DNA from: Eledone cirrhosa
Taxonomy: Eukaryota
NCBI GenBank assembly: GCA_964016885.1
Contig: OZ024743.1
Location: forward strand, 181,660,001 to 181,724,000
Direction: 5' to 3'
DNA length: 64,000 bases
Shown here: positions 9,798 to 49,135 of the stretch, piece by piece
Layout of the letters: each line of letters opens with the position of its first letter
How positions within the stretch are numbered: position 1 is the first letter of the stretch
Translations under genes and position numbers: made by a program
Notes under the pieces: model-generated
Told to the model about the DNA's origin: nothing
Database searches by the model: none
The model's input: the letters and a program-made list of their open reading frames with translations, nothing else

Positions 9798-10040
9798 AGG
9801 AAAAGGTTCAGGACCCCGACGGCAGAGCTCAAGCCGTTTCGACGGCTATTTCAGAACTCCAGAAATAGTCCCGAGATAACCGTCTGGACTCCAGAAATGA
9901 GTCCAGAAATAGCCGTCGAAACGGGTTGAGCTCTGCCGTCGGGATCCTGAACCTTTTCCTATTACCCACTCTACTACCCAAAGTATCGAGTACTCTGGTG
10001 CGTTATGGTCCACCTGGTTCCTTACCACACTTCCTTCATT
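9798..10040. mobile_element. Fold-back mini-element, family A copy 1
   Basis: Inverted arms within 9798-9960 plus ~80 bp tail; (TA)n on both sides; HHR 3' half GAAACGG..GCCGTC. Confidence 0.8.
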
Positions 10041-10369
10041 ATATATATATATATATATATATATATAAATAAATAAACTTTTATTGCAATGGTCTGAAAT
10101 AATTTCTGTTTAGAACATCTGTTCCCCAGTTTACTGAGATGATGTGGAATAAAGAGAAACGTTTATGGCAGATACGGACAGACCAACTAAATCAGAGGTC
10201 AGGTTTATTTTAGCACTGATTCAAGAAGAGATAGCAACTATTAATAATAACAGTAAGAAGAACAATAACAATAATAACAGCAGCAGTATTGAAGGCATTT
10301 ACTGAAGAAATAGACCGAACTAAATAAACACTTGCTTCTCACTTTCAAGAAATTATCATATATATACAT

Positions 10370-10622
10370 ATTGTGCGTTAAGTATTTCCGGAGAAAAGGT
10401 AAATGAATAAAAAATGCTCTATGTATTGTACAGAGCTATTTAATTACATAATACACAACACAATGTAATTATTTCAATACCGAAGGTTTCAAGAAACTAG
10501 ATGATTCTTGCAAGAAACATCCAGTACAATCGTCAGACAAAATAATTTATTGCAAGAATCATCTAGTTTCTTGATACCTTCAGTAATTAAATAATTATAT
10601 TGTGTTGTTTATTATGTAATTA
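10370..10622. mobile_element. Fold-back mini-element, family C, with HHR motif on the minus strand (10468-10547)
   Basis: Arms ~10442-10517 / 10549-10621; minus strand CTGACGA..actggatg ttcttgcaagaa catctagt..GAAAC CTTCG GTA; homologue at 58312-58508. Confidence 0.7.
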
Positions 10623-11040
10623 TATATATATATATATATTTTTTTTTTTTTTTTTTTTCCCCGTTCTTTGCCAGGGAACGTTTCCACGAACCAAAGTATC
10701 GTCTTCCTGTCTTCCTCCGGTTGCAACGTTTTTTGAAATATTCACTTCTGCGTTCACAAATTGACTTTGCTAGTTTCAGAAGATCCCGTTAAGGGTGAAA
10801 GCAGCGATTCTTTGCTTAAACTTTAAATATGTTATTTTAATAAATATTTGCTCTACGGTTCTTATATATTTGATATATATTTATCCTTATCGAGCCCTCT
10901 TTGGATTTTAGTCTTCAAATTTATTATTATTACTATATATATATATATAAGCAAAAGGGATATTCAATTTATTGGTAATTCAACAAATATAAATGTTTAT
11001 AACTTATTCAAAGCACTCGACAAGTTTTCTGGATTATAAT

Positions 11041-11120
11041 ATTCAATGATATTAAATAAATGGAAACTATAAATATGGTTTTATAAATATAGTTTCCATT
11101 TATTTAATATCATTGAATAT
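11041..11120. repeat. AT-rich inverted repeat next to (TA)n
   Basis: attcaatgatattaaataaatggaaactata / tatagtttccatttatttaatatcattgaat. Confidence 0.85.
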
Positions 11121-11323
11121 ATATATATATATATATATATATGTATATATAAAGTATTGAAGTTTCCGTTGAAAATTGAAAAAGTCATAGGAATGAAGAG
11201 TGCGCTATGTAAGTTACAGAGCTAAATTTAATGTAATATTATATATTATTATATATTATATATTGTATGGTATGGTATGGTATGGTATGTTTTGTTTTTG
11301 TGTTGTGTTGTGTTGTGTTGTGT

Positions 11324-11521
11324 AGGAACAAGTAAGACCCCGACGGCTGAGTTCAAGCCGTTTCGACGGCTAATTCTGAACTAGTCCAGAATTAGCCGTC
11401 GAAACGGCTTGAGCTCAGCCGTCGGGGTCTTACTTGTTCCTATTACCCACTCTACTACCCTAAGTATTGAGTACTTTGGTGCGTTATGGTCCACCTGGTT
11501 CCTTACCACATTTCCTTCGTT
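11324..11521. mobile_element. Fold-back mini-element, family A copy 2
   Basis: Arms 11324-11441 plus tail tattacccactctactaccc...ccttaccaca. Confidence 0.8.
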
Positions 11522-11699
11522 ATATATATATATATATATATATATATATATATATATTCGTTGATAAACTCGCACTGATTGCTTCCAGGTAGAACCTGTG
11601 GTGGATTTAAAAGATTCATGGTGATGCTACCTGGAGCAACATGTGGTGGGCTTCAAATATCTTTCTCTATATGTATATATATATATGTGTGTGTGTGTG

Positions 11700-45485: not shown

Positions 45486-45559
45486 AAGACGGCAGGGTGG
45501 GTTTTTGCTATTTTTTTCTCCCAGATAGAACAGCTATGCAGAAGGTCCCTTATAACTTC

Positions 45560-46000
45560 GAGTTATTGCTAGAGAAAGAATTGCTAGAGAATGAACTACT
45601 AGTGAAAGAATTGCTAGAGAATATATTGCTAGAGAATAAATTGCTAATGAAGGAGGTGCTAGAGAATTGCTAGAAAAAGATAGATCAAGAATGAATAAAG
45701 AAATGTTTATTCTTCATTGCTGTTTTTATTGACGTTTATTTTCTTTGTTTTGTTTTTTTTTCTAATCTTTTCTTGTGAAAATAAAGAGAATAAATTGTTA
45801 GTGAAGGAGTTGCTAGAGAATTGCTAGTGAAGGAGTTGCTAGAGAATTGCTAGAGAATACATTGCTAGTGAAGGAGTTGCTAGAGAATTGCTTGAGAAAG
45901 ATAGGTCAAGAGTGAGTAAAGAAATGTTTATTCTTCATTGTTGTTTTTATTGCCGTTTATTTTCTTTGTTTTTTTTTTCTTTTCTTTTCTTGTGAAAATT
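45560..46000. repeat. Degenerate ttgctag(ag/tg)a tandem repeat with a duplicated ~150 bp block
   Basis: ~14 ttgctag-type units; 45630-45780 duplicated at 45855-46000. Confidence 0.8.
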
Positions 46001-46639
46001 TCTCGTTTTATTGTCTAAATTCTTCGTTTAGCGTTGTAGCGAGTTCCTCGTAGAAGGAAATAGACACGGCAGGAGGTGGATAGTTAACTAGCAGGATGGG
46101 TGGAACAACAAAAGAGGGGAGAAGACAAGATAGAAGGGTATGAGATGAATTGGTAGCAAAATATTACCGCTTCAATCTTGACTTCGTTAAGATTAAATGC
46201 GTTGAAGAAAGAGGGAAAGCGGAAATCTTTGCTGCTACACTATCCCCTTCCTCTGTCTGTTTGTTTATCTCTCTCTCTCTCTATCTATCTATCTATCTAT
46301 CTATCTATCTCTTTCTCTCTCTCTTTATCTCTCTCATACACACACACACAGGCATACACACACACACATACACACACACACACACACACACACACACATA
46401 TATATATATATGTGTGTGTGTGTGTGTTTGCACAACAAACAAGCGGGCAACTACAACCAAATGTTGTTTCCTGTTTCCTTTTCAGTTTTCATTCTGATAT
46501 TTTTTATTGTTTTTCTATTTTCTTTGTTTTTTATTTTGTTTTCTCATTCTCCATTTCATGATATTGTCTTCTTCTTCTTGCCGTGTTGTTTTTCAACCGC
46601 CATTTTATTGCTTCTAATCAGTTTAAGAATATAATTTTA

Positions 46640-46765
46640 TTTAATTGTTTCTACTTTAGGCACCAGGCCAGCAATTAACCAGTGCATTACTGGTACTTTA
46701 TTTTATCGACCCCGTAAGGATGAAAGGCAAAGTCAACCTCGGCGGGATTTGAACTCAGATCGTAT
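46640..46765 (-). mobile_element. 5'-truncated tRNA-derived SINE
   Basis: Core and tail match. Confidence 0.85.
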
Positions 46766-48844
46766 TTAATGATAGCAGTTTCTTTTACATAAGGTTTCAT
46801 CTACAAGGTGGTAATAACATTGACACGGAGAAAACAGCCAGTGACACCCACTGCATCAGCCATTCCACCTCATGGGGGAGGGGGCGTCCTTTCATCGGGT
46901 GGAATCAACTCCTCCTTATTTTACGAGGGAAAACAGCAATCTGAGGACCGTGGACACCGGGGAACATGACAGCGACTGACACGAAAAGGAAAGTGTCTGA
47001 TAAGTCCCAATAATTAGATATCCCTTCTACTTTACGGGTGCCGGTGCCTTGGTTTGTATTGATTGATAATTTTATATTGGTTGATAATGTTGTATTTGGT
47101 TGATAATGTTATATTTGGTTAATAACGTTGTATTGGTTGATAATGTTGCACTGTTATATTTTAATATTTCTTTGATTGAGTCAAATGTCCTCTACTTGTT
47201 TACTGTGTTTTCTTATCTAGAGCAGAAACCCTGACCAGTGCGTTTCTCAGTGTTCATAGCTTATCACTTTGTAAAGTTGTCACCAACAAAGACTAGCATT
47301 CTTCTACAACATCAACAGCCACAGCAACCATAACGGCCACGGCAGTTACAAAATTAACAATAATTTTCTTTATTTGATTCGGGAGTTTCGGCTTTCACTG
47401 AATTGTAAATATTTCTTCTTTACTAAAGTCTGCTTTGAACAAATCAACAGTTCACAGTAAGTTGTGTGTCTGATTCTTGACAAGAAACTTTGCAAAAAAA
47501 AAAGCGATTTTCACCTCATACAATACAAGGCTCACCTTTGTAAATGTCTTCGGTGTTGCCTTTTTTTTCGAGGCGCTGTTTTAATTTAACTTTTTTTTAA
47601 TTTTAACTGCTATTTGAAGTCAGACGTTGCTTAAAGACTGTGTCTTTGTAGTAAGACAAGATTTTCTCTAGATGTTTATACAGTATCACCTAGTTATAGT
47701 TGATGGAAATTAAAAACGCAACCGATTCTTTTTCCTCTTATTTTATTAATATTTTCTTTGGTTTTCGTTTGAAAGTCATTTCTCATCCGTTCCGCGTTGA
47801 AGATTAATATGAATACATGAATTTAGCAAAAATCATTTCTTGTACAAAAATACGATGTTAAAAACAGATATACTGTTTAAAATAGATTATATATAAAAGT
47901 AATTATAACTTTATAACTTCAAGAAATATGTATATTATTTATTCATCAATAATTTCGTCCAAAATGTTGTTGAAATTTGAATTGAGCTATTCATTTGGTA
48001 ATCTTATCGAGATAGAATCGAAACTTTTCAAGTGAATAAGGTGTCAAAATGTCTGTGCTTCGTATCCCAGAAACGATAAGAATCATCTCAGTCTGTAAGC
48101 AATTAAAGTGGACAAGTGTTGACATAGAATGGCAGAATGGTGAAGAAGAATGCTTCGCAATCATTAGGTCCCAAGCTCGATCCCAGTGTGTATAATCCTA
48201 GGTAGCTGTTATTTACTATAGCCTCAAGTTGATCTGTGCTTTATAAATGAAATTGAGGAGCCAGAAACTGTTTAGAATAACTACACTCGTAAGTCAAAGA
48301 GGCGGCCACGTCGCAGATTGCGTCATGCCGAATTTCCCTGAAGATTACGTTAAGGCTACACGTGTCTGTGGAATGCTCAGCCACTTACACTACAATTTTA
48401 TGAACAGGCTGTTCCGTTGATCAGCCGACTGGAACATTCGCCAGTGGAACCGATGGAGGTTCAACAACAACAACAGTCAGCTTTGTACCCAACAAACAAT
48501 AAATCTTCTCAGTGTATCAAATAGTTAAATCGACAAATCTTTCTCTTACGAATTTAACTACTGCCATTTAGTAGAGTTTTAGAGAGTGGTCGGTTCCATT
48601 TAATCAAGCTAACTTAAACCTAAAGACTATCTATCACTTCTTATAATCCAATAGCACAATATATATATATACAGCAAATATATATATATATATAATAGAA
48701 ATAAGATTTCGCTTCAAGTATAACGTTATACAAATATGTATAGAAAATTCGTATTTCTAAAGAAACATGGTATTAGGAAGCCGTAGCTATGCAAACACCG
48801 GGGCTAACGCTCTCTGGTGGTGTCCAGCAGAAGCAAGGGGGACA

Positions 48845-48888
48845 ACCGTCTATGCATTTCAGGCTTGACTGGCCTTCTTCAGGACGGT
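48845..48888 (-). ncRNA. Minimal type I hammerhead ribozyme
   Basis: accgtc-CTGAAGA-aggc cagtcaa gcct-GAAA tgca TA-gacggt: perfect stems I and II, palindromic minimal stem III. Confidence 0.8.
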
Positions 48889-49033
48889 CCCTCCCACCGC
48901 TTGCAACTGCTGGACTTGAAAACAGTCGAGAATATATAGTTTTCTCGTCTGTGTAAATGAGGTGATTAATCTCATTTGCATATGAAGCTGCATAAGTTGG
49001 CTCGACTGATTTCAAGTCCAGCAGTTGCAAGCG

Positions 49034-49135
49034 TAGTAGAGTGGGTAATAGGAAACGAGTCAGGACCCCGACGGCTGAGCTCCGGCCGCTTCGAAACGGC
49101 CGATGCTCAGCCGTCGGGGTCCTGACTCTTTTCCT
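49034..49135. mobile_element. Fold-back mini-element, family A copy 4
   Basis: Arms 49050-49135 with a short tail remnant; ends in (TA)n. Confidence 0.75.

Follow-up and report, generated by a model that had tools for sequence, protein, structure and literature searches.

The stretch of DNA analysed here (the window; 64,000 nucleotides of the Eledone cirrhosa genome, contig OZ024743.1, positions 181,660,001 to 181,724,000) contains four copies of a short hairpin element, family A, at 9797-10042, 11323-11523, 29768-29974 and 49033-49137 (c1 to c4 below), where an earlier sequence-only reading had placed them. We propose that these hairpins are short head-to-head end pieces of an autonomous Penelope-like element (PLE) of the Hydra clade, made when both strands of a (TA)n target prime at two fixed sites on one RNA, and we consider this explanation likely. 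Twin priming on one RNA, taken by itself, is well supported and in our judgement highly probable. The head-to-head architecture has already been published, and the value of the present case is mechanistic.

Results and Discussion

The parent of the hairpins was traced from two loci of a fixed-step genomic sample (L119 and L127), at which arms run on upstream. It consists of an open reading frame (ORF) of 719 amino acids with a reverse transcriptase (RT) followed by a GIY-YIG domain, a 3' untranslated region (UTR) of about 1.1 kb, a hammerhead, the arm and the tail, in that order; the full unit of 3,543 bp was taken from a tandem array. With the A of TTTAGTCC numbered +1, the two positions at which insertions end are CCTAT| at +61 and CGTTAT| at +141, and the ATG is at +232. 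In tandem units the tail continues for 86 nt to the next ATG, which means that both insertion ends are internal sites of the parent. Both sites finish in TAT, matching the (TA)n target.

The ORF is intact and contains the motifs FDIESYY, GATDS, GLYRDDGL and VIY..YIG..R..H, together with the marks of Hydra elements, namely RWR at 37, DKT at 117, CNCPDRSIC at 572, CNLC at 670 and ACKH at 697. Between IY and YIG there is a single Cys, and the CCHH motif is not present. Relatives at E<=1e-30 number 2,208 among the 7,998 scored. A Pfam scan of the ORF returned no family. One relative, P0064, shows 41% identity across 96% of the parent and by eye nearly equals Hydra-2_Amil in the PMC8557442 supplement. 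Judged by its ORF, its tandem copies with pseudo long terminal repeats (pLTRs) and its inverted copy with a one-sided tail, the parent is classed as an endonuclease-bearing (EN+) PLE, and the protein motifs of PMC8557442 together with the (TA)n targeting place it in the Hydra clade. It represents a new family within a known clade and of known architecture. Tandem or partial-tandem copies forming pLTRs were found at L246, L258, L324 and L327-L329, in addition to the array of 3,543-bp units.

The hairpins themselves have the general layout of an inverted arm of ~45-60 nt ending in CCTA, a variable centre, a sense arm and an 80-nt tail, and they sit mostly between (TA)n runs. As had been read from the window, the outer stretches are mirrored inside each copy, with a single mismatch in c3 and one in c4, and the turn-around point is not the same across c1-c4; over the whole arms, partners differ at 2-4 sites. 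The arms also hold GAAACGGC..GCCGTC, with no CTGANGA ahead of this motif in any copy. Two other claims fared less well. The short arm was said always to stop at CCTA, which is true of all four window copies but genome-wide of 72 out of 78 hairpins (~92%, ending at +60/+61). The outer variants were said to be private to each copy, but they are mostly subfamily haplotypes, and exact matches to those of c2, c3 and c4 turned up in a further 29, 5 and 5 of the sequence contexts fetched; the first count is inflated because 30 loci had been picked by likeness to c2. For the c1 outer haplotype, no other occurrence was found among the loci fetched.

Genome-wide, a 26-nt exact anchor across the centre detects 14,283 hairpins and the reversed-pattern control none, so the family lies far beyond chance. 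The fixed-step sample, 79 stretches with a total length of 790 kb, gave 19 groups of hits, which suggests several tens of thousands of copies in the 3.0-Gb, TA-rich genome. At non-CpG sites the arm-specific differences are 1.4% and 1.3% and the mirrored ones 1.1%, and the tail differs by 2.2%. Added together, arm-specific and mirrored differences match the tail divergence, meaning that the arms begin alike and drift apart. Gene conversion between arms, which had been offered as an alternative, is unneeded and was not seen; in an older subfamily the arm-specific differences rise to 3.0-3.7% per arm. The idea that the inversion is made anew at each insertion, on the other hand, holds up, as centres vary and arms cluster by copy.

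These data bear on the option that a ready-made hairpin, either a master copy or a DNA element resembling a miniature inverted-repeat transposable element (MITE), is copied whole while gene conversion keeps its arms alike. Such an element would fit the outer haplotypes common to many copies and the fact that some centres recur. However, the centres are highly diverse even among the youngest copies, the arms drift apart in the older subfamily, a parent encoding RT exists, and arms lying kilobases apart also have variants in common. Apart from local duplications, we saw no clade with one centre and side-specific variants, and we regard this option as extremely improbable. A MITE or DNA transposon with a fixed interior was rejected because the ends are asymmetric, the interior is variable and the parent encodes RT. 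We also considered a non-LTR retrozyme, which is made of non-coding tandem repeats with a complete hammerhead in each (10.64898/2026.07.22.740005), and rejected it because the stubs are head-to-head and incomplete and the tandem units are full coding elements.

We now turn our attention to the ends of the arms. Every arm is a sense copy of the parent with its 3' end at +61 or +141. The short insertions analysed are the two-armed ones among the first 100 matches on C1 to the youngest subfamily; with lone and long arms set aside and one tandem duplicate counted once, they number 47 pairs. All 47 combine one tail end with one CCTA end, and so do 29 of 30 long pairs. The tailed arm reaches further 5' by at least 3 nt in 11 of the 47 and the tail-less arm in 17, while the two lie within 2 nt of each other in 19. 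Five are loop-less palindromes, and four have no sequence shared between the arms; no shared arm sequence is present at L283, L375, L376 and L378, nor at L249, which is a long insertion.

The sequence-only reading had suggested cDNA fold-back, or self-priming in the long stem II of the hammerhead. In such a model a single cDNA primed at the tail would turn back on itself and be copied as far as CCTA. The arms are indeed near-identical, the predicted pile-up of centres inside stem II of the parent hammerhead was found, and self-priming has been put forward for head-to-head palindromes (PMC3846280). However, the loop of a fold-back needs a tailed arm at least 3 nt longer on its 5' side, which is the case in only the 11 short pairs mentioned above; the loop-less palindromes and the pairs without shared sequence are not accounted for, and the fixed CCTA stop is left unexplained. 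In the short hairpins, moreover, the left arm is a mirror image of the 3' strand of stem II, and the 5' strand or loop of the parent never appears in it. The long insertions point the same way. The tail-less arm is further 5' in 8 of 18 simple long pairs (26 examined, of which 6 had no clear partner and 2 were complex) and in 9 of 12 from a second set (17 examined, of which 4 contained tandem units and 1 had two CCTA ends), its excess often being more than 1 kb of ORF. At L245, L254-256, L330 and L331 the tail-less arm contains up to kilobases of ORF that are missing from the tailed arm, and at L244 and L252 a tail-less arm stands alone. Fold-back is therefore very improbable; to survive, it would need most insertions to have undergone large deletions on one side.

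It is important to establish whether the two arms derive from the same template. At an inner A/T site, 134 discordant hairpins were found against the 14,283, that is 0.9%, compared to ~47% for random pairing; the two alleles are split about 31:19 among the first 50 hairpins, counted by eye, and the two search patterns differ slightly in their gap limits. The discordant hairpins were examined as candidate chimeras of two RNAs, and none of the first 30 clearly switches outer-haplotype subfamily (two arms were too short to score). In a set not chosen by likeness, both arms belong to the same subfamily in 66 of 68 scored pairs. In 30 long pairs, 30 rare variants are common to both arms against 2.65 after shuffling, the shuffle maximum being 10 and none of 2000 shuffles reaching 30. 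Another 103 variants in these pairs are unshared, and, as later mutations prevail, an arm is often closer to some other arm than to its partner.

Arm lengths are linked as well. Comparing 14,587 arms with 2,179 copies of a 23-mer situated 79 nt upstream shows that no more than 15% of arms extend beyond the centre. When one arm is long, however, its partner is long as well in 16 of 20 cases; head-to-head pairs hold 58 of the first 100 upstream matches, by eye. Shared variants, linked lengths and free breakpoints are all fitted by two primers on one RNA copy.

If the two target strands instead primed on two separate RNAs from the same source locus, no stretch would have to be copied twice, and two observations could be taken in favour of this scenario. 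The first is that L282 and L344, the other two of the 68 pairs, may be subfamily chimeras. The second is that at L032, L041, L055 and L059 (positions about 1170-1510) a ~230-nt element of another family, holding a complete CTGAAGA..GAAA hammerhead, stands head-to-head with a family A arm, which could reflect either a joint insertion of two RNAs or nested insertions. However, at L041 a TA run lies between the arms, so that the cross-family cases may be separate insertions. Two separate RNAs are also at odds with the linkage in length class, and with the asymmetries of at least 10 nt in the short pairs, in which the tailed arm is the shorter one 10 to 0, as would follow if it ran into the other cDNA on a template common to both. 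We find this scenario improbable.

The hammerhead of the parent deserves closer inspection. Its predicted fold is a three-way junction of type I with GAAA and an NUH site, a long stem II of about 50 nt and a full helix as stem III. The fold energy is no better than that of shuffled sequences (z 0.15). The core reads UUGAGAA, with U3 and A8 replacing C3 and G8, and U3-U4-G5-A6-N7-A8-A9 is found in five parent types; the same U3-A8 variant is known from Schistosoma elements (PMC4209133). The parent is thus predicted to carry a complete type I hammerhead with a U3-A8 core. In the window copies the core is incomplete, as they start at about +1 or later, within stem II. The lack of CUGANGA in the hairpins has two causes, namely that the stubs begin inside the ribozyme and that the parent core is a U3-A8 variant. 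A search for a parent with the canonical CTGANGA core yielded nothing but decayed arms, members of other families and matches due to chance; the core is in fact TTGANAA. Rfam returned no hammerhead for the window, only sub-threshold microRNA-like and small nucleolar RNA-like matches, and ribozyme searches confined to CUGANGA overlook family A.

Next, we consider where the arms begin. Among 96 arms, all from the youngest subfamily and a single chromosome arm, 89 start between -3 and +39, 68 of them at -3 to +8, and 7 are long, but none starts from -4 to -32; any arm shorter than the 23-mer used would have been missed. This gap makes an edge, as at an RNA end. Where a single base separates two complete arms, it is G or C in 43 of 50 cases. 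Among longer spacers, C..G occurs in 8 of 50, G..C in 2 of 50 and AAATTT in 18 of 50, the last being the commonest spacer of 2-6 nt. Arms of parent type have T, A or C before +1, and G in 0 of 22. At junctions with inserts, G occupies position 0 in 12 of 40 rows, symmetric junctions counting as two rows. In L1 insertions, an extra G of this kind marks a cap that has been copied (PMC11702581).

A TATA-like TATTTAAA lies at -29, and +1 falls in a motif resembling an initiator (Inr), TTA+1GTC (TTAGTC), which is TCAGTA in another parent type; four other parent types likewise retain TATA-like and Inr-like motifs, at -29 to -31. The distance from the -29 box to the Inr is the usual TATA-to-initiator spacing. 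A TATA and Inr pair has been described in a pLTR (PMC3846280). Pieces of ORF or UTR ahead of +1 at L132, L263 and L368 show that the template of the short arms is coding RNA. On balance, a capped RNA start at +1 within stem II, by which the 5' repeat copy would be left without half of the ribozyme, appears likely to us from these sequence features. A 3' splice site at TTTAG| was ruled out since the arms commonly include the AG, and the fixed 5' end of an RNA resembling a short interspersed nuclear element was ruled out by the long arms and the ORF pieces. In contigs from sequencing runs, loose TA ends are seen at both end positions; these runs are perhaps not assembly-independent, and they were not used as evidence.

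An alternative that keeps twin priming is that the pile-up of centres comes from stalling in stem II or from cleavage at its apex rather than from a transcription start. In its favour, the 5' limit at -3 coincides exactly with the upper end of the 3' strand in the inner helix of stem II, and the frequent AAATTT spacers fall there. However, no arm ends in the loop or in the 5' strand (-4 to -32), and stalling would generally be expected at the base of a helix and not past a 3' strand that has been read. The untemplated G ahead of +1, and the TATA-like and Inr-like motifs at textbook spacing in this and four other parent types, are also difficult to reconcile with it, and we judge it unlikely.

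Runs of single bases were seen at some junctions. Two lone arms (L067 and L358) have 13-17 T at their 5' end joined directly to (TA)n, and A or T runs occur in the centre of L005, L022 and L031. PLEs are the closest relatives of telomerase RT, and the T runs point to terminal-transferase-like untemplated addition of A to cDNA ends by a telomerase-related RT.

On the basis of these results, the following mechanism can be suggested. The enzyme, probably a dimer, would cut both target strands, and each 3' ..TATA end would prime at one internal site. With transcription from +1 in stem II, both sites would be present twice in the RNA, near the capped 5' end and at the 3' end. On the 5' copy, priming would give cDNAs no longer than 61 and 141 nt, which would run off the cap and gain a C or an A run; these products would be the roughly 85% of short arms, and priming on the 3' copy would yield the long ones. 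The cDNA 3' ends would then be joined via 0-8 nt of microhomology, and the same joint would prime the second strand.

The two sites may be placed by bulged hairpins, which in the parent are found at +67 and +145, that is, 5 and 3 nt behind the two ends. Both have the same shape (4+4 bp with a 2-nt bulge), with modest pair probabilities of 0.3-0.6. Among 214 tails the stems vary by 0.9% and the loop and bulge by 14%, and subfamily differences fall in the loop or bulge. No compensatory change was seen among these tails, and adjacent unpaired tail positions are also conserved. The pair of predicted hairpins perhaps positions the priming sites, which we offer as a lead only. A long-range helix from +68 to +165 was dismissed, its pair probability being only 0.38. 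In the coral element Hydra-2_Amil (PMC8557442 supplement) the 3' end, by eye, also has TTCGTTAT, and a bulged hairpin of like shape is located downstream of the hammerhead.

Besides the two possible chimeras, several points weigh against the mechanism. Copying one RNA stretch twice requires strand displacement. For the PLE protein studied in PMC11167929, the start site shows no homology to the DNA that is cut and does not vary from one strand to the other, whereas here there is a TAT match and one site for each strand. The sets of 47 pairs and 96 arms come from the youngest subfamily and one chromosome arm, and the parents of c1, c3 and c4 were seen as fragments only or not at all. Regarding the capped start, it is predicted from genomic sequence, the strand to which a one-base G/C spacer belongs is ambiguous, and position 0 is C in one parent type. 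Finally, the arm ends at -2/-3 with AAATTT spacers, at the top of stem II, could arise from cleavage, stalling or A-tailing.

Comparison with Known Systems

The closest match is the Hydra clade of Craig et al. 2021 (PMC8557442; e.g. Hydra-2_Amil and Hydra-1_Obim). The shared features are a single ORF with RT followed by GIY-YIG, RW(K/R), DKT, a CxCx5C linker, no CCHH, CxxC and CxH around E and N, a (TA)n target and a hammerhead in the terminal repeat. The family A parent differs in its length of 3.5 kb, owing to the long 3' UTR, against under 3 kb, in its U3-A8 core against CTGA-type cores in the three Hydra rows compared, and in the stem II of about 50 nt, the 80-nt tail and the very many stubs.

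For EN+ PLE insertions in general, an inverted 5'-truncated copy and a one-sided tail are described as standard (PMC8557442, PMC3846280). Family A resembles them in the head-to-head arrangement, the single-end tail, the partial tandems and the microhomology junctions. However, published tails are 30-40 bp rather than 80 nt, and the arms in family A are most likely primed separately on one template. The inversion was ascribed to self-priming on an antisense template in 2013 (PMC3846280) and was called 'still undefined' in 2021 (PMC8557442). In the literature searched, which covers few subscription papers, no published model of PLE inversions by twin priming or capped run-off was found.

Both strands are cut and extended by the Poseidon protein, with starts at two internal sites flanking the tail (Poseidon_Ac, Frangieh et al. 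2024, PMC11167929), a predicted dimer and unprocessed RNA as template; all this parallels family A. The Poseidon starts lie in the ORF, whereas family A has its starts in the 5' UTR, where each finishes in TAT and serves one strand. The main text of that paper contains no model of inverted insertions. In LINE-1 twin priming (PMC11702581) the second target end likewise primes internally on the same RNA, the cDNAs are joined by microhomology and an extra G marks the cap. In contrast, the second L1 site is variable and the pieces barely overlap, while in family A the sites are fixed, the overlap is usually palindromic and most insertions would be twin-primed. With the Cercyon hammerheads of Schistosoma (Cervera and de la Pena 2014, PMC4209133) family A shares the core covariation, an enlarged helix II with an unpaired 5' base and opposite-strand motif pairs; it differs in having stem III as a full helix and a putative core promoter in stem II.

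A broader proposal would be that PLEs integrate by obligatory twin priming, in which one dimer uses one RNA at two structurally marked sites, one per strand, and the cDNAs prime each other's second strand. In family A, the promoter inside stem II would leave a disarmed half-ribozyme at the 5' end together with both sites, and most integrations would be abortive run-off palindromes. We see even chances for this generalization. If true, it would account in a single step for three features of the whole class, namely the inverted arm, the tail on one side and the synthesis of the second strand. The intact, very young parent and its thousands of insertions provide testable numbers, namely starts at +61 and +141, the predicted capped start at +1 and the one-RNA rule. 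The analysis also shows that, in such genomes, MITE-like or microRNA-like hairpins numbering in the tens of thousands are stubs of retrotransposons.

Features of the Window and Related Loci

The tail-less arm of c1 (9797..9858, minus strand) covers +1..+61 of the parent, with the CCTA end against (TA)n. It is followed by a junction of short re-copied arm-start pieces with a G ahead of +1 (9859..9899) and by the tailed arm (9900..10042, plus strand), which covers +1..+141, i.e. the hammerhead 3' half and then the tail, and likewise abuts (TA)n. The bulged tail hairpin of this copy is found at 9968..9991 (plus strand; +67..+90), 5 nt behind the first start site. In c2 the tail-less arm (11323..11382, minus strand; +1..+60) is flanked on the left by a GTGTT repeat and not by (TA)n, and the tailed arm (11383..11523, plus strand; +1..+141) follows with no loop at the centre.

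The other two copies have their tails leftward. The tailed arm of c3 (29768..29911, minus strand) covers about +1..+141 and its tail-less arm (29913..29974, plus strand) has the CCTA end against (TA)n. Copy c4 belongs to an older subfamily, its tail-side arm (49033..49092, minus strand) starting near +17. The tail, on the minus strand, breaks at about +77, after about 17 nt, where it abuts another hairpin element (48898-49033), and the tail-less arm (49093..49137, plus strand) again has CCTA against (TA)n.

A single insertion of 20.7 kb spans L321-L323 (approximately C1:91473071-91493820). It begins with an inverted 1.1-kb tail-less arm, followed by a junction in which a 55-nt ORF piece is repeated head-to-tail about 65 times, and continues with one partial and four full units, 99.7-100% alike, and the tail. 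This suggests a circular or multimeric template with repeated re-priming at the junction. Smaller junction repeats are present at L119, L239 and window c1.

Decayed relatives of the ORF, with 34-48% identity by tblastn, lie head-to-head at 52314-53766 (minus strand) and 54940-57389 (plus strand) of the window, and are assigned to a second Hydra-like family. The first of them is flanked by an inverted pair of 141 nt (50931-51071 and 53773-53913), 98% alike and with a CTGAAGA motif. Unrelated hairpin elements, several of them beside (TA)n, are found at 8187-8377, 10489-10574, 11043-11116, 20779-21101, 22975-23292, 30158-30350, 48898-49033 and 62421-62490; they are probably stubs of other Penelope-like families. 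One arm of the element at 8187-8377 has a CTGATGA..GAAAC motif, which occurs again at 62635 (minus strand).

In addition, a tandem array of about 18-20 copies of a 63-nt unit, 97-99% alike, occupies 12735-14105. GC-rich copies on opposite strands at 26128-28662 and 59480-62018 are 81-91% alike, and we take them to be a long interspersed nuclear element (LINE) of the L1/Tx1 type from their motifs. On the same footing, other LINE-type RT frames are presumably located at 16.7-18.6, 33.2-36.6 and 37.9-40.4 kb, and a presumed mariner-like fragment lies at 9161-9589.

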